Assembly: GCA_048061555.1 (NCBI GenBank)
Contig: JBGMRO010000002.1
Coordinates: 1-27,426 of the forward strand
Direction of reading: 5' to 3'
Length of the DNA: 27,426 nucleotides
Source of the DNA: Thiohalomonadales bacterium
GTDB lineage: Bacteria > Pseudomonadota > Gammaproteobacteria > SZUA-152
Under the pieces are notes generated by a model, which saw only the letters and a list, made by a program, of their open reading frames with translations, was not told the DNA's origin and ran no database searches. Positions 1 through 24,540 of this stretch are shown here, in pieces (within the stretch, counting starts at the first letter, position 1; each line of letters starts with the position of its first letter). The position numbers and the translations under genes were made by a program.

Positions 1-486
1 GATCGCTATTTATGGCGGAGCTTGGAGCAAACACGTGCATGGCAAGAATGGAACCTGTTGGCAAAAATGCGTGAACTACAGCTACCGGTACCTCACCCCG
101 TAGCGGCGCAAGTGAAACGACAAGGGATGTTTTATCGTGCCGACCTGATTACTCAAAAATTAGACAATAGTAAATCTGTGGCCGATATTTTACGTAAAAA
201 AGAACTGACTCGAGAGAACTGGAAGCAGATCGGTGAGACGATTTGCCAATTTCATGATCACGGTATTTATCATTCCGATTTGAATGCCCACAATATAATG
301 ATTATTAATGAAAAGGATGTCTATTTGATAGATTTTGACAAATGTGGTGAACGTGAGCAGGCCGAGACATGGCGTCAGGAAAACCTGGCCCGATTGAATA
401 GGTCCCTATTGAAGCTGAAGGCGATGCACCAGGAGTTCTTTTTTAGTGAGAACGACTGGGCCTTATTACTAACGGGTTATGGCTAA
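1..486 (+). CDS. kdkA: 3-deoxy-D-manno-octulosonic acid (Kdo) kinase, 5' partial
   Basis: Frame is open from base 1 (DRYLWRSLEQTRAWQEW...). Kdo-kinase motifs LPVPHPVAA, YRADLIT, HSDLNAHNI, YLIDFDK and NLARLNRSL are present. Adjacent to waaA. Confidence 0.92.
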   Translation, partial: DRYLWRSLEQTRAWQEWNLLAKMRELQLPVPHPVAAQVKRQGMFYRADLITQKLDNSKSVADILRKKELTRENWKQIGETICQFHDHGIYHSDLNAHNIMIINEKDVYLIDFDKCGEREQAETWRQENLARLNRSLLKLKAMHQEFFFSENDWALLLTGYG

Positions 487-649
487 CTAGTGCTCGTTCA
501 TAAACGAGGATATTTTCCCAAGATCGACTGCTCTAATGCATCCATGCATTCGCAGCATAAGGCCATCCATGGCCAAAAGGCGTACCGATTTTTTAAAGCA
601 CAACGCAGATATTGGGGAAATAGACCGTTTGTGGATGGGCACTAACGGG

Positions 650-2822: not shown

Positions 2823-2854
2823 TCACTGCTTCCTGAATGACAAGCAAAAAAAAA

Positions 2855-4213: not shown

Positions 4214-4287
4214 AAGTCGTCTAATGGTTAGTTGTGTGATAAATAGTTAAGAAATAGGCGTAGATAGCGGCTTGTCGTCCGGGTTAC

Positions 4288-4950
4288 TCAAAATACAAAT
4301 TTTTGCGGCATTTCCACGTTTTCGAGTGCAGGCAATACCGTTTCGAATAAACACTCGCGTTGAAACTCCGTAGCGGCGATGCGTTTGATCAGGTTGACTG
4401 ACATATTAGGTTGCTCGCCTTCTACGACAAAGAGTCTGCCATTGATGGCCAATTGGTTCTCTAGGACATCTGTGTGTAAGGGCAGGGACCCGGTCACCGC
4501 GATGACATCATAGGGGGCCTCGTCAGGCCAACCTTGGACGCCGTCTTGATTTAATATGGTCACATTATCGACGTTTTGTTCAGCGAGTCTTTTTTCCGCG
4601 CTATTTTTTAAAGACTCATAAATCTCTAGACTCCACACATGGCGGCCCAATTTCGCTAACAAGGCAGTGAGAAAACCGCTGCCGGTACCAATCTCTAATA
4701 TTTTATCTGTCGAGGTGATCGAAAGCGCCTGTAGTAGTCGTGCCTCCATGATAGGGCTCATCATAGTTTGCTGGTGTTCGATAGGAATGCTTATGTCGGC
4801 AAAGGCGAGTTGCTTGTATTCCTTAGGCACGTAGAGCTCTCTCGGCACGCTGGAGATGACGTCCAGGACGTGCGGGTCTAGTACCTCGGCAGGTCGAATC
4901 TGTTGCTCGATCATATTGAAGCGTGCTTGTTCTGTACTTACTTTATCCAT
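4288..4950 (-). CDS. pcm: Protein-L-isoaspartate O-methyltransferase (pcm-like paralog upstream of tolC)
   Basis: ARFNMIEQQIRP, VPRE, AFADI, SAM motif LEIGTGSGF and APYDVIAVTGS. Confidence 0.9.
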   Translation of the reverse strand: MDKVSTEQARFNMIEQQIRPAEVLDPHVLDVISSVPRELYVPKEYKQLAFADISIPIEHQQTMMSPIMEARLLQALSITSTDKILEIGTGSGFLTALLAKLGRHVWSLEIYESLKNSAEKRLAEQNVDNVTILNQDGVQGWPDEAPYDVIAVTGSLPLHTDVLENQLAINGRLFVVEGEQPNMSVNLIKRIAATEFQRECLFETVLPALENVEMPQKFVF

Positions 4951-5080
4951 GGTTTACCCTGTTCAATGCCCGATTATTATGTTCATGCAGTGTACTAAAC
5001 CTATTCGAAAGTTTCTATCGAGCGTGTTAGAATTCCCGCCCGGTACCATTCATTTAGAAATAAAAAATTAGGTTGAATAG

Positions 5081-7138
5081 TTGATATTTTTACCGCGCAG
5101 CATACGCTATTTAGGCATCATTGTCTTGATCCACGTAACGGTTTTTTCATTGCTGCGTGTGTTACTTTGGCGCTATTTTGATAGTCCCAGTGACCCTTTG
5201 TCCGGCATGGATAGCGCACAGGCACTCTATATAGGTTTTAAGTATGACCTTCGCGTAATACTGTTAGTCTTATTACCCCCGTTACTGTTGGGGCTGCGTG
5301 GGCCACTACGGCTGTTTAGTCCCTGGGGGAAGCGGGTCTGGCTGAGTTATTTTGTGATTGTGTTTTATATGATCATTACGCTCTCCGCGCTCAACTTTGG
5401 TTACTACGCCTATCTACAGCAGCCTTTGAACGCAACCATATTGCGTTTTTTTGGCAACCCTATGATATCTCTGACAATGTTGTGGCAAAGCTATCACATT
5501 GTTTTGATTATGTTGGGATTAATAACCGTTACTGCTGCGTATTTTTGGATTATACGTATTGCCTACGAGCGATTACAGGATGCACCCCAAAAGGACTATC
5601 GCCGACGCGGTAATATCGTACTCGGCAGCGTGATCTTCGTGCTCGTGGTAGGCGGATTGTACGGAAAATGGTCATATTATCCGCTGCGCTGGAGCGATGC
5701 CTATTTTTCTCCGCACCCCTTTGTCGCGGCTGTCAGTGTCAATCCGGTCTTACATCTCTATACGACTCTGAAAAATAGGCAAGTGACCTATAGTAAAAAA
5801 GAGGCGCAACGTTATTACCCACTAATGACAGATTATTTAGCGATAGACCAGCCTGATTCTGAAGCCCTATCCTATGTACGCCACCGAGAGGGGGGGGCGC
5901 TTGCACACAAACGTCCGAATGTCATCTTGGTCTTATTGGAGTCTTTTGCCAGTTACAAGACGAATTTGAGTGGCAACCCGTTAAATGCGACGCCCGTTAT
6001 TGCAGACGTGGCGGCGAATGCAATCTATTTTCGTAATTTCTTTGTACCACATACGGGCACCGCTCGTTCAGTATTCACCACGATTACCGGGTTACCCGAT
6101 GTCGAGGTTACCAAGACCTCGTCAAGAAACCCGCTGGTCGTCAATCAGCACAGTATCATGAATGATTTTGTGGACTATCAGCGTTTGTATTTTATTGGTG
6201 GTAGCGCGAGTTGGGGCAATATCCGTGGGCTACTCGCCCACAATATTGATGGACTGCAATTATATGAGGAGAATAATTACGAGTCACCGCGCAACGACGT
6301 ATGGGGGATATCGGATCTGGATCTATTTATAGAAGCGAATAAGGTCTTGGATAGGCTTTCTAGCTCACAAAAACAACCTTTTTTTGCCATAATTCAGACA
6401 TCGGGCAACCACCGGCCTTACACTATCCCAGACGATAAACACGGTTTCGTCTCTAGTCATCTCGATAAGGCCCAGCTCATCAAGCATGGTTTTGCTTCTC
6501 TGGCGGAATATAACTCGTTTCGGTTTATGGACTATAGTGTGGGTTATTTTCTCCAGCAGGCCAAACAAGCGGGTTATTTTGATAATACCCTGTTTGTATT
6601 TTATGGTGATCATGGTATCCATGCCGATACCGGGGCCCATATCCCGAAATGGGAGCAACAGTTAAGTATCCAGGGGCTGCGGGTGCCGCTATTGTTTTAT
6701 GGGCCAAAACTTATTCCAAGGGCACAAATTATTGATACGATTGCCAGTGAAATGGATGTGCTGCCAAGCATCGCGGGATTAGTTGCAAAACAATATATGA
6801 ATACTACACTGGGTAGAAACCTGTTTGATGACCGCTATGCACAGAGCCGTTATGCGTTTACGGTGACCCACGGAAATGGCCTAACACTGGGTTTGCTCAA
6901 TCAGGAATTTTATTATCAAATGCATGAAACAGGTAGCAACAGGAACTTATTTCAAATTCGTGCTGGCGATAAGTTTGTCGAGGATGCAAGAAAAAACGTT
7001 ATAAAAGATTTCCCAGAGCAGGCCCAAAAATTCGCGACCATGACCGAGGCCTTGTTTGAAACCGCCAAATACATGCGATATAACAATAAAGCTTATAAGA
7101 TGACCCCTGTACGAAATAAAGTGGATGCCACGAAGTGA
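5081..7138 (+). CDS. LTA synthase family / sulfatase-like phosphoglycerol-type transferase
   Basis: About five N-terminal TM segments, then an alkaline-phosphatase-superfamily domain: PNVILVLLESF, nucleophile region HTGTARS, TSGNHRPY, YGDHG, DVLPSI and GRNLF. Confidence 0.85.
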   Translation: MIFLPRSIRYLGIIVLIHVTVFSLLRVLLWRYFDSPSDPLSGMDSAQALYIGFKYDLRVILLVLLPPLLLGLRGPLRLFSPWGKRVWLSYFVIVFYMIITLSALNFGYYAYLQQPLNATILRFFGNPMISLTMLWQSYHIVLIMLGLITVTAAYFWIIRIAYERLQDAPQKDYRRRGNIVLGSVIFVLVVGGLYGKWSYYPLRWSDAYFSPHPFVAAVSVNPVLHLYTTLKNRQVTYSKKEAQRYYPLMTDYLAIDQPDSEALSYVRHREGGALAHKRPNVILVLLESFASYKTNLSGNPLNATPVIADVAANAIYFRNFFVPHTGTARSVFTTITGLPDVEVTKTSSRNPLVVNQHSIMNDFVDYQRLYFIGGSASWGNIRGLLAHNIDGLQLYEENNYESPRNDVWGISDLDLFIEANKVLDRLSSSQKQPFFAIIQTSGNHRPYTIPDDKHGFVSSHLDKAQLIKHGFASLAEYNSFRFMDYSVGYFLQQAKQAGYFDNTLFVFYGDHGIHADTGAHIPKWEQQLSIQGLRVPLLFYGPKLIPRAQIIDTIASEMDVLPSIAGLVAKQYMNTTLGRNLFDDRYAQSRYAFTVTHGNGLTLGLLNQEFYYQMHETGSNRNLFQIRAGDKFVEDARKNVIKDFPEQAQKFATMTEALFETAKYMRYNNKAYKMTPVRNKVDATK

Positions 7139-8532
7139 AACCTCTCGGCAAGAAAATTAAAATAGTTCTATCCGGTCTTTTTGTGATTGCTGCGTTGAGT
7201 ATCGCTATTTTTCCAGCACAGCAACAGATCGTTAGTCCACGTTTGACCCTGCCAGTGATAAAACTCGCCGGGCAATCGTTTGAAATTGAAGTGCGTCACT
7301 CGGTAGGTTTTAGTTTCTCTGACTGGCAGGTGGGCTTGATCGATTATAAAGGTGATGCCGTTGCATTGCCGGTATTGGACACGTCGATCGGTTTTGGGGT
7401 TTCCAGGCTAATCGTCAGTTTGCCGCAGTCGATGGTGACGGGACAATACACACTGGTGCTCGGTGATTCTCTACCCAGCAATACGCTGTTTAGTAAGAAC
7501 GCAGTCTATGTGCGTGACCACATGCCTGAAGATATTTCGATTATTCAATTGGCAGATTTACCAACCCTAGGTGGAGATGAAAGTGGGGATAAGGCATTAG
7601 AAGGTATAATTGAAGAGATCAATATCATCAATCCTGACGTCGTCTTGTTTAGTGGAGATCTGGCCTATGGCGGTAGCTGGGATCAGTACCGGCGTTTGCT
7701 AGCATTGCTCGAACAACTTGAAGTACCACTCATCACCGTGCCGGGCAACCATGCCTATTATGGATGGGCGGGTTATCTTAGTTTACTCGGTAGACCCTAC
7801 CACCAGGTCGAGTTGGGTGATTATCAATTTATTGGTCTGAATAGTGGTCACGGGCGTGACCAGATGACCATGAGTCAGCTACGCTGGCTGGAGACTACCG
7901 TGAGTCAATCTCCGGCCAAGCATCGTATCTTACAATTACATCACCCAATACATCATCCGGAAGATTTAGGCGGCTATTTGCGCGCGAATCGACACAGATT
8001 ATTGCGGATTATCGAACAGAGTGAGGTCGCCATTGTATTATCGGGACACTGGCATGGCGATTCGGTTTATGACGATACCGGTACACTGCGTACCGACAGC
8101 TGGGATTTTACAGGCACTCCATTCGTAGTAACGACCACGGCGGGTGCGGACCTTCGCCCGAACTATTCGAACTCACCGTTGCACTTTGGGTATCGGTTGA
8201 TACGTTTCGTCAATGGTGTATTGGAAAATTACACCTATGATTACGATGGCGATGGAAGCAGGGATGCGACAAGTTCCATTCCTGTCGGCAAGTTAAAGGT
8301 CGTGCCACGTGGGCGTTATGGCGTCGGTGTACATAACGAGCTTAACGAAGGTTTTCTAAATGCCCGCGTAAAGATACATATACCCGATGCGGACAACAAT
8401 TATCTACCAAACCGAGGCAAGGTCGAAAACGTGATAAGAAAAGACGGCGAATCCATTTATTCGATCTTGGTCGATATACCCGCTAATCGCAAGACTGCCA
8501 TATCTATGGTGCAAGAAGGTTACAATGATTAA
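7135..8532 (+). CDS. Exported calcineurin-like metallophosphoesterase with atypical motif I
   Basis: N-terminal hydrophobic segment; motifs ADLP (normally DxH), GDL, GNH, HHP and GHWH. GTGA overlap with the upstream stop. Confidence 0.8.
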   Translation: MKPLGKKIKIVLSGLFVIAALSIAIFPAQQQIVSPRLTLPVIKLAGQSFEIEVRHSVGFSFSDWQVGLIDYKGDAVALPVLDTSIGFGVSRLIVSLPQSMVTGQYTLVLGDSLPSNTLFSKNAVYVRDHMPEDISIIQLADLPTLGGDESGDKALEGIIEEINIINPDVVLFSGDLAYGGSWDQYRRLLALLEQLEVPLITVPGNHAYYGWAGYLSLLGRPYHQVELGDYQFIGLNSGHGRDQMTMSQLRWLETTVSQSPAKHRILQLHHPIHHPEDLGGYLRANRHRLLRIIEQSEVAIVLSGHWHGDSVYDDTGTLRTDSWDFTGTPFVVTTTAGADLRPNYSNSPLHFGYRLIRFVNGVLENYTYDYDGDGSRDATSSIPVGKLKVVPRGRYGVGVHNELNEGFLNARVKIHIPDADNNYLPNRGKVENVIRKDGESIYSILVDIPANRKTAISMVQEGYND

Positions 8533-9607
8533 GACGTTATTAGCTTACCAGTTTGTATTTTTATTGGCTCCTGCGCTGATCATTTCCATGGCCGTATTTG
8601 GCTCTGATTTCAAGGGGCCGACGGGCTGGGTGCATGTCGTCGCCTGGTCGATTATTTCAATATTGCATATATTACGTCGCTGGTGGGCGGCCAAAGTATC
8701 GGCTGGCATAATGCGGATATTATTGATCATTGCTATCCCCATAGGCGTGCTCGCCTATCGGCAGATCCATCTCGATATCTGGGACGAACATAATCTATCA
8801 CAAGCAATATTGATCAGCTTGCTGGCCGTATTGGCGTATCTCGGCAGTGTGTTCGCCACGCTTGCGGACGATGGCAGCGAGAGTGGCCACTTTAGCGATA
8901 AATATCAGCTTGAGATGGTCCTGATTATATTTTCCGTGTGTTGGCTGGTTGCGCTGATGTATCCGCAGATTGCCTTTTTTGCGGTTGTGTTGATATTGGG
9001 CTTGGCGGCAATTTGGCTTTCCTGGTCACGCCGAGTGCAGGCACGGGCAAGTTCGATAGACGATAAATTCACAATCTTAGATAAAACCCAGGATACAAAA
9101 TACTGGGGGATCAGGTACCTGGTGTTCGTGCTGTATCTCGATGCCGGTTTGGTGGTCTGGGACTATAAGGTGAATCTGGTCTGGGCTGGGCATCTGGCGG
9201 TGGTATTGTTGGCCGCGGCCTTGGGCGTATTGTTTAGCCGATTTTTGAGTGGCCGGCAACTAGCCGATCACAAACGTCAACTCTTTTGGGTCTACATGTT
9301 GGTGGGCATCAATATGGCCGTGGCGATGAGCATACCGACCTATGTTATTAGTACCGTGCATACGTTTCTGCTCGGCCTAGGTCTGGGGGTCGTAATTGCT
9401 CACTTGAGTGCGAGCAAGCAAGGGCAGCCGGCGCTGCTACACATTACAGCCTTGTGGCCTTTTGTCGTTTTAGGCCTAGTCGTCGGTTATGCCTTTTATG
9501 CACAGCTGAGTCTGGCGGCTTGGCGTATTCTCTTTGTGATACCGCTACTCATTATCGCCGTGAAGATAATCTTAAAGACACGCGCCGCAGTACAATCTCC
9601 GTCTTAG
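8525..9607 (+). CDS. Multi-pass integral membrane protein of unknown function
   Basis: 360 aa ORF with roughly 10-12 hydrophobic segments; overlaps the preceding gene by 8 nt. Confidence 0.75.
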   Translation: MIKTLLAYQFVFLLAPALIISMAVFGSDFKGPTGWVHVVAWSIISILHILRRWWAAKVSAGIMRILLIIAIPIGVLAYRQIHLDIWDEHNLSQAILISLLAVLAYLGSVFATLADDGSESGHFSDKYQLEMVLIIFSVCWLVALMYPQIAFFAVVLILGLAAIWLSWSRRVQARASSIDDKFTILDKTQDTKYWGIRYLVFVLYLDAGLVVWDYKVNLVWAGHLAVVLLAAALGVLFSRFLSGRQLADHKRQLFWVYMLVGINMAVAMSIPTYVISTVHTFLLGLGLGVVIAHLSASKQGQPALLHITALWPFVVLGLVVGYAFYAQLSLAAWRILFVIPLLIIAVKIILKTRAAVQSPS

Positions 9608-13061: not shown

Positions 13062-13406
13062 TTAGTAGATATAGACCGCACCTGCCTCAGGTCGGTTGCT
13101 TGTATCTCGTATACCGCTGATTGGATCGTTAAAACCGGTGGCAATGCTACCCTCTGAGGGAGCCGTAACCAGGAGTGTATGACCGTCATGATCTAATTCG
13201 ATCACGGTACCAAAAGAGTCCCGATACCCGGGGTCTGGCGCCTTCTACTAGGGTTGGTTTTTCTCCGGTACCAATGGGGCCATCTTCGTCACCACTGCTG
13301 CACACAGCATGAATACAAGGACACTGAACAAACCGCCGGTAACCACATTTGTAACGGCTTTCTTGGCGGTGCTGTAAATACGCCTACTCTTCCAGCTCTC
13401 CCTCAT
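13062..13406 (-). pseudogene. Internally deleted, frameshifted FG-GAP/integrin-like repeat lipoprotein gene
   Basis: ATG 13406 (AAGGA RBS) gives MRESWKSRRIYSTAKKAVTNVVTGGLFSVLVFML. A shift near 13303 gives CSSGDEDGPIGTGEKPTLV. A third frame (13244-13062) gives KAPDPGYRDSFGTVIELDHDGHTLLVTAPSEGSIATG...AGAVYIY*, a typical terminal bacterial FG-GAP repeat. Not in the ORF track. Confidence 0.72.
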
Positions 13407-14259
13407 CCACATCGTCCTTTTTAATGTCTTCTATATAATAAATTCCTATGCCTGTGCGGGTGCCTGGTTGGGTAAGCCCTAGCTCTTTTTCGATACGTTT
13501 TTTATTGGCCAACCACTGATTCAAATCAAGTATCAGTGCATTGCATTTGTCACGGCTAACGATCCTGAATTCATTGATGCCCGCCTTTGACAGTTGCCCA
13601 TAGACCACCTCTCTTTGGAAACGAGGCTCCTTGGAATTGTGCAGGTTGTGATCAATTGTAGTCAATAGGTCTGAAGCGCTGGTCCCCATGATAGTGAGTT
13701 TGTCTAATTCATCGGAAACGGGGACGTAACCTTGAGAGATGAGCGTGACCTTGTTCTCGCCCACCAATTTTACTGCCTCAATGCGCAGCAGCTCGTCCAA
13801 TATAGCGCCGTGCGTTACGTCCCCACTATACTGCTTAACCAATTGTTTAAAGTCAAATTTATCGCCACGTATGATCAATGTGCGTGGCTTGTTTTTCTTG
13901 CCTTGATAGTTTTTATCTTGTAACCAGCCACCCAATACACGAGAGGCACGATTTAACGGGCGACTAACATTGGAACTAGTCAGATTATTCTCAAGTAAGT
14001 TGGTGATCTTGACCACCTCTTTACGGCTCAGGCCCGACAAAACCGATACGCGCGATATCGACGTCTTCCGCCCTTGAATTCCAAAATGGTCATAGCCCAC
14101 TTTTACGAACAGTTTTTTCGCCAACTCATTAAATTCCACATGCGATACACCGCAACTCATTAGGATACGAATAAGCGGCTCCATAAGTTTCGCGGTGGCC
14201 GCGAGTACACTATTTTTTTTACTGTCCATTGCTGGGAATAATAACCCACTTCTTAGCAT
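13384..14259 (-). CDS. DUF6502 family protein (putative HTH-like regulator)
   Basis: PLIRILMSCGVSHVEFNELAKKLFV, SISRVSVLSGLSRKEV, NRASRVLGGW and FKQLVKQYSGDVTHGAILDELLR recognised as DUF6502-like. The start could instead be 14229. Confidence 0.75.
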   Translation of the reverse strand: MLRSGLLFPAMDSKKNSVLAATAKLMEPLIRILMSCGVSHVEFNELAKKLFVKVGYDHFGIQGRKTSISRVSVLSGLSRKEVVKITNLLENNLTSSNVSRPLNRASRVLGGWLQDKNYQGKKNKPRTLIIRGDKFDFKQLVKQYSGDVTHGAILDELLRIEAVKLVGENKVTLISQGYVPVSDELDKLTIMGTSASDLLTTIDHNLHNSKEPRFQREVVYGQLSKAGINEFRIVSRDKCNALILDLNQWLANKKRIEKELGLTQPGTRTGIGIYYIEDIKKDDVDEGELEE

Positions 14260-14298
14260 TGTGTAAATAATAAACAGGAATTACATCACAAAAATAGT

Positions 14299-14327
14299 TT
14301 GACAGATTATAAAAATGGGAATAAAGT
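14299..14327 (+). promoter_or_regulatory. Candidate sigma70 promoter for the five-gene operon
   Basis: TTGACA (14299-14304), 17-nt spacer, TAAAGT (14322-14327). Confidence 0.55.
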
Positions 14328-14678
14328 CCCTATTTATGGTCTGGGGAGGCTGTTATTGGTCGTAAAGTGAGCATATGGAGGCCGGTCAGTTTGCGCTAGT
14401 GATATCGGCGACGTGGGCATTCAAAACCGCGCAATCACTAAGTCTTATCTATACAAGGCTGGCAAAAAGAAATTGCTTGGGGGGATTTCTTTTAGTCGCG
14501 CAGCGGGGGGCTCGGGATGCGTTAAAGAAAACGGAAACGAGATAGTGTGAGAAATTGTTCTATGACGATTGATTAGACAGAGCGGTAGCGTCTTCAGTCT
14601 TCGATAATAATCTGCGTGTAGTGGGTTTACAAAAATAAATGTCTGTTAGCAGACGAAAATGAATAAAGGAGTTTGTCT

Positions 14679-16736
14679 ATGTCATCACCAATACGGAAAT
14701 ACAAAATAGTCTGTGGTGTTTCGCTAATACTACTGAGCCAAGGCGCGCTAGCCATTGGGACATTGCCTGGCATCAATTTTACCGAAAGGAAAACGGAGCA
14801 GGTGTCGCGTAATATCCTGGAAAAATGTGTGTTTGGGCCTGTTTGTGATTTACCGTCGAGGAATATTATCGACACAGAATCGTTTACGGGGGTACCTGGT
14901 ACAGGTGATATCGCCCCCTATTATTCTACCGCCTATTTTTCACGCGCTATCGATAGCAAAAAACTGGCGCTAGCAGATGAACTTGAGATACAGGTTAACG
15001 TTCAGTCGCATAGTGGCATTCTTCCAGATTGTGGCATTCTCGTGCGCGAATTCTTTTTTCTATACCCTGATACTTCGACGTCAAATAACATTGTTTACTG
15101 TCAAGGTCGATCAGGGGATCTTGGGAGTCCAGGTTTTAGTTTTGAATGGGGACAGAATGATACCTCACCAAAACCTGGTAGCGATTTAAGCTATCCGATA
15201 ATTAATGGTGTAAAAATGGAGAGATGGACCACTCGTCGAAATATATCCTTTAAAAATCCGCGCTTATTGTACGAGTCGGAACCGGAAAAAATGTACCAGT
15301 CCGCCAAAAGGATTGTGCCGTATACGATGATTGAATACGACCTCAGTATGACTGAAGATTTTCGTGAAAGACCAGCTAATAGTTACGGGGCGACTAAAAC
15401 TACTACAGGTCTTGTTACTAATCTTCCTCCGATACGGGCGATACTGTTAAACAAAGACACGATACGTTTAGGTTGCAAATTAGGTCGCGATGTGCAGCGT
15501 ACTATTTTAAACCAATCCATAGAGCCAGTCTCTTTACTCCAATATCCTGAAATGTCGACATTTGTTGCCGGTTTCAATCTATCAAAACAATATGACGGGA
15601 CTACTTACAAACCAAATGTACAGCTTGAAAAATTGAAGTCTGCATGTGCCGGAGTTGGTGATGGTTTGGAGGTGTTTGGATTGGGGGCAGCTGAGAACAG
15701 AAAAGTCAATCTATACATAAGATACGGAACTCTAGTCGACGAGACCAATTTATGGGATGACTACGCCACCTCAATACGAGACGATCTTAATTACCGTTTT
15801 GACATTTGGAATTCTCTGAATAACGTCAATAATACGTTTGCGAGCTCCAATACGGAGTTGTTGGCCTATCTGCAGCGGGCTGCTAACGATATGAGATTAG
15901 TATTAACGGCGTATGCGCTAGACCCCGTTAATCTTCCTGCTTTTACCCTCGCCGAAGTCGATCAGTTTTTTTATGGCCCAAGTATGGGAGATCTGGCCGG
16001 GTTATATATACCCACCATTGATGTATCGGCGGCACCGGTAAGCTGGGCTACGTTTGATAGATTTGCAAAAGATGAGGCATTAAAGGGCGACCCACTATCA
16101 CCCTATATAAATTATTCAAGTGAAGTTAAATTACTGACAGCCCTGAATGACGTGCGAATATCTGGTAGCGCGGCGGTACTGGTTAATATAGTCAACGACG
16201 CGTTGGCAGATCTAGAGAACGAAATGTCCCGAGCGAATTACTTTTTGTTGCTCGTGGCAGCAGCGAACACCAAAGTCCAGACGGCGTTGAGTATTGTTCA
16301 AAGCGAAATAACCTTGGCATTGGGCCAGGCCTCTGCGCAACCATTGACACCGCTCACGATAATTACGGCGGCTACGGCACCGACAAATCCAGCACCCGGT
16401 ACAACAACTTCCTCAAATAGTTTTTTACCGATCACGTCGAGCAATGGGCCCAATGCGCCGATAACTGCTGCATCGTACATTGATGTTTATTGGACCGGTG
16501 CTGCACCGCCAGCGGGTTATAACATCGCCATTTTTGAAGAAGCGTCCGGTCTTCTACGTATTCAAAAAAGTGTGAGTGCGATGACCTTCGATGCTACTAC
16601 GCAAGAATGGTATATCGCACTTTCTGTTACGAATACCACACGCGTGGGGAATTACATCGTTGGATTTACATCCGCAAACATAGATACGTTATTTGGTGCG
16701 CCACGCAGTGATGTCTTTAGTGTAGTACGGCCATAA
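14679..16736 (+). CDS. Secreted uncharacterised protein A1 (paralog of 22409-24433)
   Basis: AAGGAG RBS 7 nt before ATG 14679; signal peptide ending GALA; six Cys in the mature part; helical middle; Pro/Thr linker; about 100 aa beta-rich C-terminal domain. Confidence 0.85.
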   Translation: MSSPIRKYKIVCGVSLILLSQGALAIGTLPGINFTERKTEQVSRNILEKCVFGPVCDLPSRNIIDTESFTGVPGTGDIAPYYSTAYFSRAIDSKKLALADELEIQVNVQSHSGILPDCGILVREFFFLYPDTSTSNNIVYCQGRSGDLGSPGFSFEWGQNDTSPKPGSDLSYPIINGVKMERWTTRRNISFKNPRLLYESEPEKMYQSAKRIVPYTMIEYDLSMTEDFRERPANSYGATKTTTGLVTNLPPIRAILLNKDTIRLGCKLGRDVQRTILNQSIEPVSLLQYPEMSTFVAGFNLSKQYDGTTYKPNVQLEKLKSACAGVGDGLEVFGLGAAENRKVNLYIRYGTLVDETNLWDDYATSIRDDLNYRFDIWNSLNNVNNTFASSNTELLAYLQRAANDMRLVLTAYALDPVNLPAFTLAEVDQFFYGPSMGDLAGLYIPTIDVSAAPVSWATFDRFAKDEALKGDPLSPYINYSSEVKLLTALNDVRISGSAAVLVNIVNDALADLENEMSRANYFLLLVAAANTKVQTALSIVQSEITLALGQASAQPLTPLTIITAATAPTNPAPGTTTSSNSFLPITSSNGPNAPITAASYIDVYWTGAAPPAGYNIAIFEEASGLLRIQKSVSAMTFDATTQEWYIALSVTNTTRVGNYIVGFTSANIDTLFGAPRSDVFSVVRP
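16422..16730 (+). repeat. Direct repeat copy 1 (C-terminal domain of A1)
   Basis: Aligns without gaps to 24122-24430 (offset 7700). 96/103 aa identical; 25 nt differences over the 280 nt counted. Confidence 0.95.
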
Positions 16737-16790
16737 CAAGAATTGACTGGTCGCCTTTCCGATTGCTCGTTCTTAACTGCGTAATATGAG

Positions 16791-16823
16791 TGGGGACCCT
16801 CTATGGGTCATAGCAGGTCCCCA
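16791..16823. other. Intergenic GC-rich hairpin between A1 and B
   Basis: tggggacc-ct-ctatg / ggt / catag-ca-ggtcccca, followed by atttt. Confidence 0.6.
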
Positions 16824-16877
16824 ATTTTCTATGCGACATTTTTTACGCAACTATATCTATGCAACAATGGAGGTAAC

Positions 16878-18053
16878 ATGAATTTACAAACAAGATATCT
16901 GTTTGGGTTATTAATAATAATTCTGCAGTTCCCGGTATATGCGTTCGAGATCTATTCTCCTACCGGTGAACCTGTGCCCGCACAAATGGATCAAGAGGAG
17001 GCGCGCCTTAATATATTGAATAGTCGTACGAATGAAGTCGTCTTTGCACATGGTAACTATGCAATTACGAGGGATAACTTGTTTCTGGGTAATGATGGCA
17101 TATTAATGCAAAGCAAGGCCTGGTATAGCGATGCATCAGTTTGGTTGGCGTTACTTGACAGTATTGTCACCTCATTTCAGACCAATAATATTAGCCAACT
17201 TGCTCAATTTAGTGTTCGAAATAAACTTCGAACACAGATAAATAGTGCCCATACAGAATTTTTGCGATTATCGAGCAGTGCGGCATCAATTCGATCTAAA
17301 AGCCAATCTGCACTGAATACGCTCGCTGATGTGAGACGTTTTCCAGCACAGTTTGTAACAGATTTTGACGCACCGATTGTGGGTTTAGTCGCTAGAGCAA
17401 ATCAGTTGGAAGATGCGGTCATCGCGATTAATAATACACTCAATATCAGCTTTATCTCGGCAACAAAATTGGCGCTGTCCAGAACACATCAAATCTCAGA
17501 GCTCTTGTTGAAATCTGCAGTGCTAAATACACAGTATGCAGCGATACAAGGGGATCTAAAGATGATGGAGTCCGTTCTGCTAGCAGAGAATATCGTGGCG
17601 CCACTCTATGCGGAACTATTAGAAATAAAAATTAAAATCAATACGCTCGTTAACGACAGCATGCCATTCAATGCAAATTCACAATTAGCGATAATGCAAA
17701 CGAAGAGCACGCAAGCGATTGCTACAATCAATAGTGCGGGTATCGGTGCTACGGAGGCACAAAGTGGCATAGACAGAATTAATGCTTTACTATTTAAAGC
17801 ACAAAACAGCGTTTCCTTGATTATGAATGCACCAGAGGCGGCCATTGTTTCACTTTACAGGAAATTGGCGGGTATCCCAGTGCTGTATTGTCGTTATCCC
17901 ATCGGTCAGAAAAAATTTAATTGTCCATTAATGAAGTCACTGGGTGGTTTAACCAATGCTGATATTTACGCGATGACGCCGGCAGATCTAAGATATTTTG
18001 AGGACTCGATAAAAAGAGTATATGACGGACCGATAACCATCGGAGGGATTTAA
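16878..18053 (+). CDS. Secreted, largely alpha-helical uncharacterised protein B
   Basis: GGAGG RBS before ATG 16878 (ORF-track start 16803 is less likely); signal peptide ending PVYA; long amphipathic helices; C-terminal Cys pair. Confidence 0.85.
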   Translation: MNLQTRYLFGLLIIILQFPVYAFEIYSPTGEPVPAQMDQEEARLNILNSRTNEVVFAHGNYAITRDNLFLGNDGILMQSKAWYSDASVWLALLDSIVTSFQTNNISQLAQFSVRNKLRTQINSAHTEFLRLSSSAASIRSKSQSALNTLADVRRFPAQFVTDFDAPIVGLVARANQLEDAVIAINNTLNISFISATKLALSRTHQISELLLKSAVLNTQYAAIQGDLKMMESVLLAENIVAPLYAELLEIKIKINTLVNDSMPFNANSQLAIMQTKSTQAIATINSAGIGATEAQSGIDRINALLFKAQNSVSLIMNAPEAAIVSLYRKLAGIPVLYCRYPIGQKKFNCPLMKSLGGLTNADIYAMTPADLRYFEDSIKRVYDGPITIGGI

Positions 18054-18054
18054 C

Positions 18055-20379
18055 ATGAAACCTAACATGAAAAGAATGTTTATTTCTATTTTACTGCTTG
18101 CATCAAGCATCATGATGGCTCCGGGCGTGAATGCCGCAGTACAATGTAACGCGATGTTGGCGATCGATAATATGGCGGACGGTGCCAAGATTGACCCGGC
18201 ATTATTGGCTAAAATGTTGGGTCGTACGCCTCTGACTTTTATCCCCTTTGTCGCTCAAGATATCGTAGCCTGGATTGATTATTTCAATATTAATTCAAAT
18301 CCCCAACCCCAAGCCCCAAAGATTGGTGATAGAACTGTGGCTATGACTACCACCAATACCATTGAATTAAGGGAATACAAATATACGGACTTCGGCTCAC
18401 CTGGATGGGTTATGTATTCTGATGTGGGTACGGTAACGGAACTGCTGCAGGATTTAAACAAATTTGAGCAAGAAATGAATGCGCTAGGTTATTCAATACG
18501 TACCACGGATAACGACTCAATATTTTCTGACGTAGAAGCACTGTATACGGACCAGAAAAAATTGAAGGCGCAAATGCTGCATGATTTAAAGGTCGCGGCT
18601 ACCACGCAATTACTGGAGTGCGCAGCGACTATACCCGTTGCGAATTGCCCCCAGTTTGACTTGCAGTATGCACAGACGCATTTGGTTGATACCGTTGAGA
18701 GAATCGAGGTGCTTCCTGATGGTACACAGAAAAAAATAGTAGAATCAGTAACACAAATCGATCCAAATAAAAAAGTTGACATTAACGGAAATGAAGTAAC
18801 CTTATCTACACTTATAAATGCAGCGAATAGCTCAGCCAAGGTTGCCTGTTTATTAAATATAAAATTGTTCGATCTTATTCCCGGATTCCAAGCAGTCTCA
18901 ATGCCAGGAATAGATCATCCGGTGATAAGCTGGAATTTACCGACGTTAAGCTTGCCGAATTTTGGTAAAATGACCTTTGCCGGCATGAGTTCGAAACTAC
19001 AAGCGCTTGGTTGCCCGAAATTTCTATGTGGCGCATTAGCCAAAGTCGGGTTCGGTGGTAGTGGTCCATCGAAATGGTGGGAGAATTATATAGACTTCGA
19101 TTTTGCTGATTTTAACTCACCCGAAGCGCTTAAATTAAAGGCTATTCAAAATACTTTGAGTGGCTTGAGCACTAACTTTGATATTCCCAATTTATCAAAA
19201 ATGCCGGTATTGGACCCACCTACGTATCCCAAACTACAACTCAAGAAAAAGAAGGAGTGGTCAGGAATAAACCGCGGTAGCCATGACCGAGTCGGAATTG
19301 AATCTCTGGCCTATTATGAGATCTATGGTAGCGAATTAGCGCAAGCTGGTGTGGCCTATGGAAAATTCAGCGCATGGATACTTGGATTAGAGATAAATAT
19401 TGTTAGTGCAAGTGGAGATTTTTTTACCGGTGTGGCATCCGAATCTAATAATATCGGCTTAGGGCTAACGAGTGTTGATCCTAGCGATATACTAGGATAT
19501 ATGGCTATTAAGCTTCGTTATTTTGGCGATACCTGGGAGAGTATACAGAATCAAAGTGGTGGATTAGGTATCTCGGTAAATAGAGACGAACCTCCCATTT
19601 CTTTTAAATTCATTATGGGTAACAGCTATCAGTTTACGGTGGGTCCAGTACCTGTGGTCGTCACTATTGGTGGTTACTTTGAGGCGGGCCTAGACTGGTC
19701 AGCCGGTCTTGGTCCATTTAAGATGTACGCGATGCTTGAACCTTTTGCTAAGGGTGGAGGTTTCGTTCAAGGGGGTGCCGGGATTGGCAAGTTTTCTGCT
19801 GGTGTAGGTGGCGAACTGACAATAATAGATGCCCGGGTTCCCCTAGAAGCCGCCGTGCGCTTGGCGTTTTCCGAAAATGGGGAGCCCTATTTAGATCTCG
19901 GTATATCATCTAAGCCCTATTACATCACCTTGGGCGGGCGTATTTACGCCTACGTTACATACCCATGGCCTAAATTTAGTTGGAGGCCCGGCTGGAAAAC
20001 AAAACAAAAAACAAAGACACTTTTTGAAACTCCGGGAGAATTACACGACTATCCTATTTTTGATTGGGGCATGGAAGTCGGGTATCGCGGGCTGACCATG
20101 CGCGGAGATTTAATCGATCAACAAGATTTAGCCATGGCGGCAATGTTGCAAGGTTCCATAGATATTTTCAATCGCGCCGACGCCTTGTCTTCTTATCTTA
20201 GTAAAACAAATCTTAGGTTAGTCAACTTCTATACGAAACTAGGGCAAGATCTCGCGGCAGAAACGACGAATGTCCCCGTGGTTACGAGTACAGTTGTTGC
20301 CGCATCTGACGCCTTTCTATTAGAGTTAGATACCTATAATTGTCATCTTTCAACAATTGCTGGTACGCCGTGTTTGTAA
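18055..20379 (+). CDS. Secreted protein C: helical N-half, amphipathic beta-sheet C-half resembling the LLTP open beta-sheet
   Basis: GGAGG RBS; signal peptide ending GVNA; starts 1 nt after the stop of B; Gly/aromatic alternating strands from about 19243 to 20090. Confidence 0.8.
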   Translation: MKPNMKRMFISILLLASSIMMAPGVNAAVQCNAMLAIDNMADGAKIDPALLAKMLGRTPLTFIPFVAQDIVAWIDYFNINSNPQPQAPKIGDRTVAMTTTNTIELREYKYTDFGSPGWVMYSDVGTVTELLQDLNKFEQEMNALGYSIRTTDNDSIFSDVEALYTDQKKLKAQMLHDLKVAATTQLLECAATIPVANCPQFDLQYAQTHLVDTVERIEVLPDGTQKKIVESVTQIDPNKKVDINGNEVTLSTLINAANSSAKVACLLNIKLFDLIPGFQAVSMPGIDHPVISWNLPTLSLPNFGKMTFAGMSSKLQALGCPKFLCGALAKVGFGGSGPSKWWENYIDFDFADFNSPEALKLKAIQNTLSGLSTNFDIPNLSKMPVLDPPTYPKLQLKKKKEWSGINRGSHDRVGIESLAYYEIYGSELAQAGVAYGKFSAWILGLEINIVSASGDFFTGVASESNNIGLGLTSVDPSDILGYMAIKLRYFGDTWESIQNQSGGLGISVNRDEPPISFKFIMGNSYQFTVGPVPVVVTIGGYFEAGLDWSAGLGPFKMYAMLEPFAKGGGFVQGGAGIGKFSAGVGGELTIIDARVPLEAAVRLAFSENGEPYLDLGISSKPYYITLGGRIYAYVTYPWPKFSWRPGWKTKQKTKTLFETPGELHDYPIFDWGMEVGYRGLTMRGDLIDQQDLAMAAMLQGSIDIFNRADALSSYLSKTNLRLVNFYTKLGQDLAAETTNVPVVTSTVVAASDAFLLELDTYNCHLSTIAGTPCL

Positions 20380-20401
20380 GGCGGTAGTTACCGATCGATA
20401 A

Positions 20402-20455
20402 AACAAGCCGTCAACTTAAATGCGTAACCTCGTATTCTTGAGTTGACGGCTTGTT
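20402..20455. other. Long intergenic inverted repeat between C and D
   Basis: Perfect 15-bp arms aacaagccgtcaact (20402-20416) and agttgacggcttgtt (20441-20455), with further internal pairing (aatgcg/cgtatt). Confidence 0.85.
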
Positions 20456-20484
20456 ATCCACATTAATAGAGAGCTTGGATTAAT

Positions 20485-22338
20485 ATGAAACAAAAGAAAC
20501 TGGTTTTATTCTTACCCTTTGTTTTGCTGGTTATTGGTGCGTTAATATTTTTAAATGACATCAACAAGCAGACAAGCAAATCCGACGAATATTCAGGCAA
20601 GATGTCATTGCTTCAATATCATTTCCAGCCCGGTAGCGTGATTGAATACAAAATTGATTATCAATCGGAAGGGCAAGGAACCGTTAATATTAGTTCAAAA
20701 GTGAAGGCAAAAAAAAGCAGCGTCAATCATAAAGCACAGGTCGCGATGAAAGGGGGGCTGATACTAAAGCAAATTGCCAGAGATGACCAAGAGAATTATG
20801 TTGTCGAATACGAATTTACACCAGACACGATGAACATACAATACAACAACAAAGTTATACCAAAACCAGAACGAATCCAGACATCTGTGGTGATATTCCC
20901 CAATGGGACACTAAAATCATTTTATATGAAGGAAAACGTATTTTCGAACTATGGTCATATGATCAGAGAAATATTGTCCCTGCTTGAGTTTCCGCTACCG
21001 GCAGAGGCAGTGACTCATTGGTCGCATATGGAACGCAATATTAGTAAAGATCTAATGGCAAACTACATTGTAAATAACGTCAGTGATGATAAGTTGTTTT
21101 CTGTTGTTAAAACCTATGCAAAGGCTAGCAACAGCGAGTCGGTTAAAGGGCAGTTTGATTACACGTTTAATAACTCGAAAGGATATCTAAAATCCGTCCA
21201 CGGAGAACGAACCATAGAGTACAAGCTTGCTCAACAGGCAATGAGTGTTTCCACTGCTCGATTGAATGTAGAGTTTGTATCTTACTCAAAAGGAATGCAA
21301 GCACCTAGTTATGATAATACCATTTTAGGCAGCAATACGGGTATCATTGAGGAAACACTAAACGGAAAATATACGTCTACCAGAATAGAAAAAGAAGCCA
21401 ATACAAGCGCTTTAGGTAATGATGATTTAGTGACTCTCACCACTAAATTTGCAGCAGCCGATGAGTCCGATCATGCGGTATTAACAAAATTGGTCCAAAA
21501 ACTTTCCGCGTTACTTTATTTGCATCCAGACGTGTCGGGCGACGTAGCCGCGATGTTAGCAGATTATGAATATACCGACGGACGCTGGGGTGCGATCGCT
21601 GCCTCACTGGCGTACGTCGGACACCGAGAGGCACAACTAGCCATAATTGATGCGCTTAATGACACCAGCAGCGACAGCAAAACACAAATCGCCTTAATGC
21701 CGCATTTAGCGTTTGTCGGTAAACCCATCGTTGAAGCCGAAGAATACTTTCGCCAAGTGAAGCTCACGACTCGATCCGAGGAGGCGGCCTATAAATCTAA
21801 TAACGGGCTGGGCATAATCGCACAAAATCTACGTTACAGCGATAGCGATCGAGCCAAACAAATATACACAGAAGTCTCTGCAGAACTAGATAACGAGTCT
21901 GACCCGGTAAAACAAGTGCGTTTAATAGAAGCGATTGGTAATATGGGGATGGAGGAACAAACCCAATTATTGGAAGAATATTTAGACAGTCCCATCAAAT
22001 CCGTCAAATTGGCTTCGATTTATTCCTTACGCCACATCAATACCACCGATTCCAGAAGCCAACTCTTGGCCTATCTGAGCGACGATGATGAGAAGGTAAG
22101 AGAATCAGCCGCCATGGCCCTAGAATATACTACGGGCAACATGGACGCCCTACAAAAATATGAGCAGCGACTCAAACAAGAGACTAATGTCACGATCCTT
22201 AAAGTCATATTACGCAATCTCATCAAAATGTCCGATGATTTCCCGCAAAGTCTAGCGATATATGATCGATTTCTCACTACGTGTGCGCATAGGGATCTTT
22301 GTGGTTTTGCGAAGAGTTTGCGCTCGATGAGATCGTAG
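20485..22338 (+). CDS. Membrane-anchored protein D: beta domain plus HEAT-like helical domain, Vitellogenin_N/LLT-like
   Basis: N-terminal signal anchor; beta-rich residues about 40-270; helical repeats RLIEAIGNMG, VKLASIYSLRHI and VRESAAMALEY. Confidence 0.8.
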   Translation: MKQKKLVLFLPFVLLVIGALIFLNDINKQTSKSDEYSGKMSLLQYHFQPGSVIEYKIDYQSEGQGTVNISSKVKAKKSSVNHKAQVAMKGGLILKQIARDDQENYVVEYEFTPDTMNIQYNNKVIPKPERIQTSVVIFPNGTLKSFYMKENVFSNYGHMIREILSLLEFPLPAEAVTHWSHMERNISKDLMANYIVNNVSDDKLFSVVKTYAKASNSESVKGQFDYTFNNSKGYLKSVHGERTIEYKLAQQAMSVSTARLNVEFVSYSKGMQAPSYDNTILGSNTGIIEETLNGKYTSTRIEKEANTSALGNDDLVTLTTKFAAADESDHAVLTKLVQKLSALLYLHPDVSGDVAAMLADYEYTDGRWGAIAASLAYVGHREAQLAIIDALNDTSSDSKTQIALMPHLAFVGKPIVEAEEYFRQVKLTTRSEEAAYKSNNGLGIIAQNLRYSDSDRAKQIYTEVSAELDNESDPVKQVRLIEAIGNMGMEEQTQLLEEYLDSPIKSVKLASIYSLRHINTTDSRSQLLAYLSDDDEKVRESAAMALEYTTGNMDALQKYEQRLKQETNVTILKVILRNLIKMSDDFPQSLAIYDRFLTTCAHRDLCGFAKSLRSMRS

Positions 22339-22408
22339 ATAAAATTTGTAATTCAATTGTAACATATAACGAAATAATAGTGCTTTCGTAAAAATTGGGA
22401 GAAAATGT

Positions 22409-24433
22409 ATGTCATTAGATTCAAGGACGATTAAGGTTATTGCGTTAACCGCATTAGCCATATTAAGTCAAAGTGTTTGGGCGATAGGGCCATTGCCTGC
22501 CGTTAATTTTGAAGAGCGTAAGTCCGATCAAGCGTCTCGGGATGTTTTGGAGAAGTGTGTGTTTGGACCGGTTTGTGATTTGCCGGTGGTAAATATTGTA
22601 GAGTCTGTGCAGTTGCTGGCCCATTCCAATCCACAGACCGGTAACCGTAATCTCAGCGATCTATCTAATTTTGAGTATATAATCGATAGCAAAAAACTGG
22701 CAGCAGTGGATGAGCTGGATATACAAATCAGTGTCACTGAAGTCGACCAGGCACAAGCTCTTCAAGATTGTGACGTTGTGTTTGAACAATTTCGATACCT
22801 TCATCCAGAAATTAATTACATTACCGGACATTATTGCGAAGGTGGGACTAGTGGCGAGGGATATATTGCGCCCGGTGCAAGTAGAATCTACGACTCGCCC
22901 GGGGGCGGGGGTATAACAGTGAGACAAATCTCGTATCGCGATGTAATATTTTCCAATCCACGCTATACAAAAGCAGCAGACCATTTAGTTTTAGCCGGTG
23001 GTCATTTTGAAATGGTTGAATACGACGTGTCGATGAAGGAAAAATATTTTGTAGGGACATACTACCATATGGACTTAATGCAAACTGAAATTACCAATTT
23101 TCCTCCAATTAAGTCGCTGGTAAGAAGCGCGTCCGCAATTTACCTGGGATGCAGCATCAATGGTACTCCAGATGGTACTATGCGCCCGCGTTCAGGTATA
23201 CTGCGCCGTCCTCTTACATTACAAGGGCCAGTCACGGGCGCCATTACTAGAGTTACTGCTAGTATTAGTTTAGCAAAACAGTTTGACGGAGCCGCTTTTA
23301 AACTACATCCACAATTAGAGCGTATAAGAAGTGCTTGCCCTGAAATAGGAAACAATCTGATATTATTTGGGTATGTTGATCCATACACTAGCATACAGAC
23401 TACTTCACCAGTCAACATACACTTTCGATACGGAAGCATAACCGACGAAACCAACCTATGGGACAACTACGCCACCACCATAAGAGACGATCTCAACTAC
23501 AGCTTCGACACGTGGAATAATCTCAATACAATACATTCAAGCTTCACCACTTCAAATGCCGAGCTATTAAAATTCCTAGTGCAATACTCAAACAAGATCA
23601 AGGATCTATTGGGGGTATATTCATTGGATCCTGCGACACCCCTCATTGATGTGGAGCAATTTTTTTATGGACCCGGTACAGGGGATTTAGCAGGTGTTTT
23701 CATACCAATCGTTTCCATTCCAGACGCGCCCGCCGATTGGCTCGCATTTGACAGAGACGCAAAGGATAAAGCAACGGGAAAGACGCCGGTAGATGCAAGC
23801 CTAAAAAGTAGTTATGTACAATATCTGGCTGACATACAAATGTTAGACAATCTCAATGCTGTAAGAATATCCAAGAGTACGGCGATACTAGTCAATCTAG
23901 TCAACACCGCGGTACAAACATTGGATAATGAAATGTTGAGGTCGCAATACTTTTTGGCGTTGGCAGATCACGCCAAAGCGAATATAAAAACCTCCCTGGC
24001 TGCGCTTACCGGCGAAATCACGGGTGCTTTGGCACTGGCAACAAGCTCGCCAACCGTATCGCTCCAGGTAGATCCTCAACCGACTGTGTCGCCAATAAGC
24101 ACCGCACCGACTACGTTTGGGTTTTTGCCCATTACATCGAGCAATGGGCCCAACGCGCCGATCACGGCTTCATCGTTTATTGATATTATTTGGACCGGTG
24201 CCGCACCGCCAGCGGGTTATTACATCGCCATTTTTGAAGAAGCGACCGGTCTTCTACGTATTCAAAAAAGCGTGAGTGCGATGACCTTCGATGCCACCAC
24301 ACAAGAATGGTATATCGCGCTCTCTGTTACGAATACGACACGCGTGGGGAATTACTTAGTTGGATTTACCTCCGCAAACATCGATACGCTATTTGGTGCG
24401 CCACGAAGTGATGTCTTTAGTGTGGTTCGCTAG
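22409..24433 (+). CDS. Secreted uncharacterised protein A2 (paralog of 14679-16736)
   Basis: GGGAG RBS; signal peptide ending SVWA; shares EKCVFGPVCDLP, IDSKKLA, DETNLWDxYATxIRDDLNY and the C-terminal domain with A1. Confidence 0.87.
   Translation: MSLDSRTIKVIALTALAILSQSVWAIGPLPAVNFEERKSDQASRDVLEKCVFGPVCDLPVVNIVESVQLLAHSNPQTGNRNLSDLSNFEYIIDSKKLAAVDELDIQISVTEVDQAQALQDCDVVFEQFRYLHPEINYITGHYCEGGTSGEGYIAPGASRIYDSPGGGGITVRQISYRDVIFSNPRYTKAADHLVLAGGHFEMVEYDVSMKEKYFVGTYYHMDLMQTEITNFPPIKSLVRSASAIYLGCSINGTPDGTMRPRSGILRRPLTLQGPVTGAITRVTASISLAKQFDGAAFKLHPQLERIRSACPEIGNNLILFGYVDPYTSIQTTSPVNIHFRYGSITDETNLWDNYATTIRDDLNYSFDTWNNLNTIHSSFTTSNAELLKFLVQYSNKIKDLLGVYSLDPATPLIDVEQFFYGPGTGDLAGVFIPIVSIPDAPADWLAFDRDAKDKATGKTPVDASLKSSYVQYLADIQMLDNLNAVRISKSTAILVNLVNTAVQTLDNEMLRSQYFLALADHAKANIKTSLAALTGEITGALALATSSPTVSLQVDPQPTVSPISTAPTTFGFLPITSSNGPNAPITASSFIDIIWTGAAPPAGYYIAIFEEATGLLRIQKSVSAMTFDATTQEWYIALSVTNTTRVGNYLVGFTSANIDTLFGAPRSDVFSVVR
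24122..24430 (+). repeat. Direct repeat copy 2 (C-terminal domain of A2)
   Basis: About 91% nt identity to 16422-16730 over the counted 280 nt. Confidence 0.95.
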
Positions 24434-24540
24434 CAGCAAAAAATTGAAAAAGTAGCTATTTGGGAAATAGGGGACGTTGTTGGCCAAGAGGAAAAACAAA
24501 CTTATGCTAATCTTGCATGGAAATAGGCGAGAAGACTTAG

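Follow-up and report, generated by a model that had tools for sequence, protein, structure and literature searches.

A Vitellogenin_N-like protein encoded in a gammaproteobacterial operon, very probably a relative of the front module of animal large lipid transfer proteins

Background

Do bacteria possess the barrel and helical domains that form the front of the large lipid transfer proteins (LLTPs)? The question is raised by gene D of a Thiohalomonadales bacterium (Gammaproteobacteria), located in a stretch of 27,426 nucleotides (assembly GCA_048061555.1, contig JBGMRO010000002.1, positions 1 to 27,426) that we call the window. A first-pass annotation, made from the letters of the sequence, had read the product of this gene as a bacterial Vitellogenin_N or large lipid transfer module. 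We report here that the barrel and the helical domain of this proposal are borne out by family profiles and by fold, and that the whole module is not, the C- and A-sheets being absent. Homology of D with the front module of the LLTPs is thus, in our opinion, very probable.

The LLTPs (MTP, vitellogenin, apoB and apolipophorin) are treated as an animal superfamily, of which MTP is thought to be the oldest member (PMC6717300). In MTP, a barrel of 13 strands around a long helix (residues 21-297) is followed by a two-layer solenoid of 17 helices (298-603), which clamps both the A-sheet and the C-sheet, and a lipid-binding domain occupies residues 604-884; the barrel and helical domains bind proteins (PDI and apoB), and lipid is bound by the C-terminal domain (PMC6717300). 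The barrel carries a disulfide in MTP (C174-C194), in lipovitellin (C156-C182) and in apoB (C186-C212) (PMC6717300).

No paper on bacterial relatives of the LLTPs was found in our full-text searches of the literature. The relatives of D are already flagged automatically in databases: they carry the GenBank/Pfam label 'HEAT repeats/Lipoprotein amino terminal region domain-containing protein', and bacterial relatives that combine HEAT with PF01347 (Vitellogenin_N) have Atlas feature scores of 0.96-0.97. D itself is a divergent member, missed by Pfam, of this uncharacterised bacterial PF13646 + PF01347 family (~600-670 aa), with which it shares the architecture, the hydrophobic N-terminus and the upstream C-type gene. 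It differs from the family in that D and its closest relative (P0002, which PF01347 does not match either) lie below PF01347 detection, and in that its lineage adds the paralogues A1 and A2, so that D stands in a lineage-specific A-B-C-D-A operon. The coordinates of all these features are collected in Table 1.

Table 1. Gene D, its domains and the surrounding operon (positions in the window)
Feature	Position	Strand	Description or basis
Gene D (P0001)	20485..22338	+	single long open reading frame, 617 codons/aa, Vitellogenin_N-like protein
D N-terminal hydrophobic segment, residues 6-23	20500..20553	+	plausible uncleaved signal anchor; hydropathy
D beta-barrel domain, residues 40-292, central helix 150-167	20602..21360	+	model and profile
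D alpha-solenoid, residues 295-616	21367..22332	+	model; HEAT_2 match at 466-547
D Cys600...Cys606, sole cysteines of D	22282..22302	+	family covariation
Gene A1	14673..16736	+	exported 687-aa protein, paralogue of A2
Gene B	16878..18053	+	exported helical protein; stop 1 nt before C start
Gene C (P0152)	18055..20379	+	774-aa exported strand-rich protein
C conserved beta core, residues 397-684	19243-20106	+	model
Gene A2	22409..24433	+	exported 674-aa paralogue of A1
Perfect 15-bp inverted repeat with 24-nt loop, C-D spacer	20402..20455	+	read from sequence

Results

A conserved protein of two domains

Judged by its homologues, gene D is a real gene under selection, since these are found over its full length at 45, 35, 32 and 30% identity, and since an exhaustive HMMER search over 1.84 billion cluster representatives gathered 313 clusters of the family at E<=1e-10 (1181 at E<=1e-3). 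Dozens of these clusters consist of proteins of about 600 aa that align over about residues 42-612. A word-index search with the single D sequence returned one homologue only. The named members of the family come from metagenome-assembled genomes (MAGs) of Gammaproteobacteria and Bdellovibrionota, and its Atlas clusters belong mostly to Myxococcota, Bdellovibrionota, Pseudomonadota and Planctomycetota.

The AlphaFold2 model of D, built on an alignment of 90 sequences, is confident (mean predicted local distance difference test score, pLDDT, 93.8; predicted template modelling score, pTM, 0.87). It contains a beta region of 12 strands (residues 52-268, 217 aa) around the one long helix 150-167, and then a helical region (295-616, 322 aa) in which 18 helices are called, two of them of only 4 residues. 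This agrees with the layout first proposed, about 230 aa of beta structure and about 330 aa of helices in a protein of 617 aa, and also with what characterises the LLTPs, that is, a barrel of ~11-13 strands enclosing a long helix, followed by a two-layer, right-handed solenoid of ~17 helices. The chain ends at residue 617 with the last helix of the solenoid, and no C- or A-sheet follows. D therefore has no lipid cavity of its own, because it stops where the LLTPs begin these sheets.

Several positions are strongly conserved among the 90 aligned relatives. W179, E183, K209, G485, G488, L515, R516 and R539 are each kept in at least 90% of them, and N486 is invariant (90/90). The GN.G and LR motifs, which the first-pass annotation had compared with a vitellogenin consensus, are thus invariant or nearly so in the family (G485 in 84/90, G488 in 85/90, L515 in 83/90 and R516 in 87/90). 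R539 is found in 85/90 and an acidic residue at position 566 in 88/90; these two residues may match an internal Arg-Glu salt bridge of lipovitellin and MTP.

The N-terminus of D forms a continuous helix in the model (residues 4-35), which contains the hydrophobic stretch LVLFLPFVLLVIGALIFL; on the Kyte-Doolittle scale, the highest value over 17 residues is 3.09, reached from residue 6 onwards. An uncleaved signal anchor is plausible from the sequence, because the hydrophobic core is 18 residues long, no clear small-x-small cleavage site is present, and the same kind of N-terminal segment is found in 80/90 relatives (a lipobox-like motif in only 5/90). We infer that D is probably anchored in the membrane and faces the periplasm. 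The sole two cysteines of the protein also bear on this location. Positions 600 and 606 covary across the 90 relatives, with Cys-Cys in 41 and Asp-Arg/Lys in 36, as if a salt bridge had taken the place of a disulfide or the reverse, and such an exchange would fit an oxidising, extracytoplasmic (periplasmic) location of D.

Family profiles and fold point to the LLTPs

The membership of D among the LLTP relatives rests on family profiles and on fold, because the sequence of D itself gives no match to PF01347, even at E<=10 (the gathering score of 24 bits is not reached). When the family is considered, PF01347 is matched by 65 of 78 homologues of D (best 1.3e-18, many above 24 bits) and HEAT_2 by all 78; the PF01347 matches lie mostly at profile positions ~276-590, in the helical half, and one spans 89-582. 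Searched against the PDB, the profile of the 90-sequence family finds lamprey lipovitellin (1LSH) with an E-value of 1.1e-20, profile positions 111-594 being aligned with residues 71-585 in one colinear stretch. The same profile finds residues 387-544 of MTP at E 1e-6 and, weakly, residues 9-194 of bee vitellogenin at E 1e-3.

A profile limited to the beta domain (D 36-300 with the equivalent parts of 89 relatives) has a single match in the PDB at E<=10, and this match is again lipovitellin (residues 79-162, E 2.9e-8). Compared with Pfam, the beta-only fragments match PF01347 in 9 cases out of 90 (best 1.5e-5), and no other family recurs. In the alignment to lipovitellin 79-162, HMMER pairs two blocks of the family, GRI...R.LLsllQ..LP and W...E.d..G.Y.A.Y, which read NGTLKSFY...IREILSLLEFPL and MERNISKDLMANYIV in D and GRIGDIY...NIVRGILNLFQLSL...ELQETGVEGICQTTYVV in lipovitellin. 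Two of the vitellogenin motif pairs of the first-pass annotation, the FPNGTLKSFY block and the E..G...Y block, are thereby reproduced.

The comparison of folds leads in the same direction. In the Foldseek search of the PDB with the model of D, the first ten ranks are all occupied by LLTPs: MTP at the top (6I7S, E 9e-16 and 1.7e-15, best 631 columns; 8EOJ), lipovitellin 1LSH (E 1.3e-13, TMq 0.51, 652 columns), bee vitellogenin (9ENS, 9ENR), apoB100 (9BD1, 9EA7, 9E9R) and the apoB barrel (9BD8). The alignments span 590-735 columns, except for the apoB barrel entry (397). Generic HEAT/ARM proteins first appear at rank 11 (E 3e-6), so that the E-values of all the LLTPs are over two orders of magnitude better than that of any HEAT protein, and the best of them is ten orders better. 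The first-pass annotation had proposed to score the beta domain of an AlphaFold model separately; when this is done, the barrel of D (40-292) superposes on eukaryotic MTP model clusters with template modelling (TM) scores of 0.68 and 0.66, and on bacterial clusters combining HEAT and Vitellogenin_N with TM scores of 0.76-0.81.

How close is D to each of the known LLTPs? The large subunit of MTP (6I7S, 8EOJ) has domains in the same order and of nearly the same sizes (21-297 against 40-292, and 298-603 against 295-616); D lacks its lipid-binding domain 604-884, its PDI partner and its barrel disulfide, and differs by its N-terminal membrane anchor, by its bacterial, periplasmic setting and by being encoded with genes B and C (13% identity). 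Lipovitellin and vitellogenin (1LSH; bee 9ENR and 9ENS) provide the strongest sequence link and the best whole-chain superposition (TMq 0.51), whereas D has no open beta-sheets, lipid cavity, vWD domain or polyserine region, has about one third of their length, and is not secreted as a lipoprotein. The front module of apoB100 (beta-alpha-1 region; 9BD1, 9BD8, 9EA7) is recognised by Foldseek at E 4e-11 to 2e-8 with low TM scores (0.27-0.29), and apoB, unlike D, continues as a belt, thousands of residues long, that wraps lipid. Identity between D and the animal LLTPs is 12-15%.

The barrel could be an old domain of bacteria. When D residues 40-275 are compared with Atlas models, LLTP-type barrels are found as stand-alone bacterial proteins of ~275-320 aa in Armatimonadota, Actinomycetota, Bacteroidota and Acidobacteriota (TM 0.63-0.70). 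In Planctomycetota, Atlas clusters contain such a barrel fused to a thioredoxin-like AhpC/TSA domain.

The constant neighbour of D

D is the fourth of five co-oriented and closely spaced genes (A1-B-C-D-A2), and all five products begin with a hydrophobic segment of the export type. The upstream DNA can be read in 14 loci, and in every one of these D or its relative is immediately preceded by a C-type gene; this gene belongs to the C family in 10 of them, to a family that we call C-prime in 3, and is a weak match in 1. The same holds for two relatives with only 21% identity to D (L028 and L029), each directly preceded by a gene of the C family (E 6e-16 and 1e-27). When 399 further genomes of the class Gammaproteobacteria were sampled, 4 proved to carry relatives of D, and in 3 of these 4 D is preceded by C-prime, a protein of 760-840 aa whose core is homologous to that of C (hhalign probability 96%, E 4.5e-9, over C 483-661). 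In the fourth (L015) the preceding protein has 1204 aa and matches C weakly (3.9e-6).

The order B-C-D is found in the window and in L005, L006, L008, L022, L025 and L030, and B stands directly before C in 11 distinct loci, the window included, often overlapping the start of C. Among these loci, L005 (on the same contig as L019) comes from a groundwater gammaproteobacterial MAG and has one A-type gene before B-C-D, L008 belongs to a genome of 14.8 Mb, and L022 to a member of Silvanigrellaceae. L001 reads C-D-A-A, with two A-type genes after D, on a contig that begins inside C. L021 (Oligoflexus) departs from this order, D being found there three genes upstream of B-C.

The homologue of C in L006 (L006:5082-7775) ends in bacterial thrombospondin type-3 repeats, which are calcium-binding (TSP3_bac, E 3e-24).

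Discussion

A proposed clamp for its neighbours, with or without lipid

The explanation towards which we lean, with some reserve, is that D is an anchored Vitellogenin_N module that serves C and B as a clamp or docking subunit and works with a hydrophobic ligand. D would have a single-pass anchor in the inner membrane, and its whole periplasmic part would consist of the barrel around its central helix, followed by the two-layer alpha-solenoid. By analogy with MTP, whose front module clamps the sheets of the pocket and docks PDI and apoB, D would most likely be tethered to the membrane and act as clamp or docking subunit in a complex that it forms in the periplasm with C, with its long antiparallel strands, and with the helical B; this B-C-D complex might hold or move a hydrophobic ligand. 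That D works in a complex with C seems to us rather likely, and it would then bind C and B physically. A lipid as the cargo is conceivable, and we would regard it as somewhat doubtful.

The model of C, built on 13 sequences, is weak (pLDDT 60.5, pTM 0.30); in its better part, residues 397-684 (pLDDT ~65-86), it shows a meander of ~16 antiparallel strands, up to 22 residues long, and this part is followed by a long helical hairpin. Foldseek with this weak model gives only three matches at E<=1e-3, and all three are LLTPs (MTP at 6.5e-6 and 1.4e-5, bee vitellogenin at 3.7e-4), with TM scores of only 0.10-0.16. The Atlas model of C is too poor (pLDDT 0.41) for meaningful structure matches. In a word-index search, the sequence of C by itself gave two marginal matches (E ~3e-4), and the profile of C gave none.

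From these matches one could imagine that B, C and D are a bacterial large lipid transfer machine split over several genes, in which the sheets of C dock on the clamp formed by D and so build a lipid cavity that moves or stores periplasmic lipid. We give this split machine a modest chance, short of even, and offer it as a tentative idea, because the fold matches of C, though all to LLTPs, have very low TM scores and are accompanied neither by a match to the pocket families nor by a sequence match to an LLTP.

The main alternative is that D is a homologue of the LLTP front module in a system that has nothing to do with lipids, a protein-docking scaffold that holds, matures or presents C. C could then be a pore-former, an adhesin or a structural protein of the envelope, for example, B a helical accessory, and A1 and A2 secreted clients. 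We would give such a scaffold a modest chance, clearly short of even. It accords well with the division of labour in MTP, where proteins are bound by the barrel and helical domains and lipid by the C-terminal domain (PMC6717300), which is missing from D. The families of the LLTP pocket sheets (PF09172, PF19444 and PF06448) are matched by none of 13 C-type proteins (C and C-prime), and the profile of C finds no LLTP among PDB sequences. The next fold matches of C, at E>0.008, are outer-membrane barrels and MACPF/gasdermin pores, and its terminal helical hairpin is likewise in favour of this view. However, the only fold matches of C at E<=1e-3 remain MTP and vitellogenin, C does not carry the C-terminal beta-signal typical of outer-membrane barrels, and no toxin, adhesin or defence family is recognised on the operon proteins, apart from one HEAT-ARM match of PADLOC on D.

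Is the kinship with the LLTPs genuine?

The kinship itself could be questioned if D were a generic repeat protein of the HEAT/PBS-lyase type with an unrelated beta domain, its likeness to LLTPs being due to chance or convergence. Taken alone, D indeed matches only HEAT_2 (466-547, 7e-13), HEAT_PBS and HEAT in Pfam, NblB and CpcE in NCBIfam (far under their cut-offs), and designed alphaRep proteins in a phmmer search of the PDB. A profile restricted to the N-terminal half of the helical domain (292-452) finds alphaRep/HEAT proteins only, and no LLTP. As far as sequences can tell, the similarity of the helical domain alone is generic, and the signal specific to LLTPs is in the barrel and in the colinearity over the full length, because the beta-only profile finds lipovitellin and the helix-only profile finds HEAT proteins. 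CpcE, NblB and alphaRep share HEAT_2-type repeats with residues ~370-550 of D, but have no beta-barrel and rank under all LLTPs in the fold search; HEAT_2 covers just 466-547, and the 250-aa barrel is outside any HEAT family. The outcome named beforehand as damaging to the first-pass reading was that the HEAT part alone would score and the beta domain would show another fold. The opposite was seen: the barrel by itself leads to lipovitellin and to PF01347 and superposes on MTP (TM 0.66-0.68), the match to lipovitellin 71-585 is colinear, and LLTPs precede all HEAT proteins in Foldseek over nearly the full length. The hypothesis of a generic HEAT protein is thus largely refuted, and we regard it as very improbable.

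Besides the failure of PF01347 on D itself and the HEAT-only result of the helical profile, a few observations weigh against the reading of D as an LLTP front module that works with C and B. The whole-chain TM scores of D to solved LLTPs are modest (0.27-0.51, rmsd, the root-mean-square deviation, 9-20 Å), so that the two domains are either arranged differently with respect to each other or placed with uncertainty. The fold of the barrel is also that of stand-alone bacterial barrels, some of them labelled DUF6263 (TM 0.70); none of the 90 beta-only fragments matches the DUF6263 model PF19777 at E<=0.1, despite the similar fold. The barrel disulfide of MTP, lipovitellin and apoB is absent, there being no Cys in the beta domain of D, nor in that of 61/90 relatives. 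Finally, B-C occurs without an adjacent D in L020 and L026.

A recent transfer from an animal, or a eukaryotic contamination of the assembly, is extremely unlikely: LLTPs have been described as animal proteins (PMC6717300), the GC content of the operon (42-44%) is slightly lower than that of its flanks (46-49%) and D was not found in 24 same-family genomes, but gene D has bacterial genes on both sides of it on a single contig (Kdo transferase, lipid A acyltransferase, thiC, thioredoxin 2), stands in an operon of bacterial type with 1-nt gene coupling, shares only 12-15% identity with animal LLTPs, and is one of a deep family in bacteria that numbers at least 313 clusters.

If the kinship is accepted, this deep and widespread bacterial family, with both front domains in the same order and of the same size, would be a prokaryotic relative of the LLTP superfamily, and possibly its ancestor. 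Since lipoprotein assembly in humans depends on this module, D would offer a version of it that is small, bacterial and amenable to genetics. Its strict linkage to the unnamed, strand-rich C makes the idea of a lipid pocket provided in trans directly testable, and if the split machine considered above were real, the architecture of MTP, vitellogenin and apoB would have originated in bacteria and not in animals.

The rest of the operon and its surroundings

A1 and A2 are 46% identical overall, and their last ~100 residues are almost identical by eye; this shared tail suggests gene conversion or a common functional tail. Neither A1 nor B belongs to a known Pfam or NCBIfam family. B has a conserved Cys pair, and its profile found coiled-coil noise only in the PDB. 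NCBIfam and PADLOC gave nothing on the operon proteins except the HEAT-ARM match on the repeats of D, so that a known defence system is not supported. In the loci of Bdellovibrionota type (L020, L021, L022, L023 and L026), the place of the A-type gene before B is taken by a family of ~330-385-aa proteins, which resemble one another (E down to 3e-60) as well as a protein of 312 aa in L008.

The operon looks like accessory DNA, probably acquired horizontally, because D was not found in the 24 genomes of the same family, because the family is carried by just 4 of the 399 other genomes sampled in the class, and because the operon is 2-5 points under its flanks in GC content (42-45% in the block 13500-24500, 46-49% in the upstream flank).

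The inverted repeat between C and D begins 23 nt past the stop of C; neither arm occurs anywhere else in the window, and there is no U-tract behind it. For the spacer the folding energy is -39.2 kcal/mol (z -5.8). At the closest homologous locus (L001:1510-1621), a hairpin of 13-14 bp is found right after C, the whole spacer having a z of -1.3, which is not significant. The C-D hairpin may set the ratio of C to D, either as a partial terminator or as an element of mRNA stability.

A DUF6502 gene (E 1e-63; 13384-14259, minus strand) is transcribed divergently from the operon. Many genes for envelope lipids lie at positions 1-9607 of the window, with products that comprise Kdo kinase, Kdo transferase, lipid A acyltransferase, an outer-membrane factor like TolC, a membrane protein of the sulfatase family and a metallophosphoesterase; thiC stands between this region and the operon.

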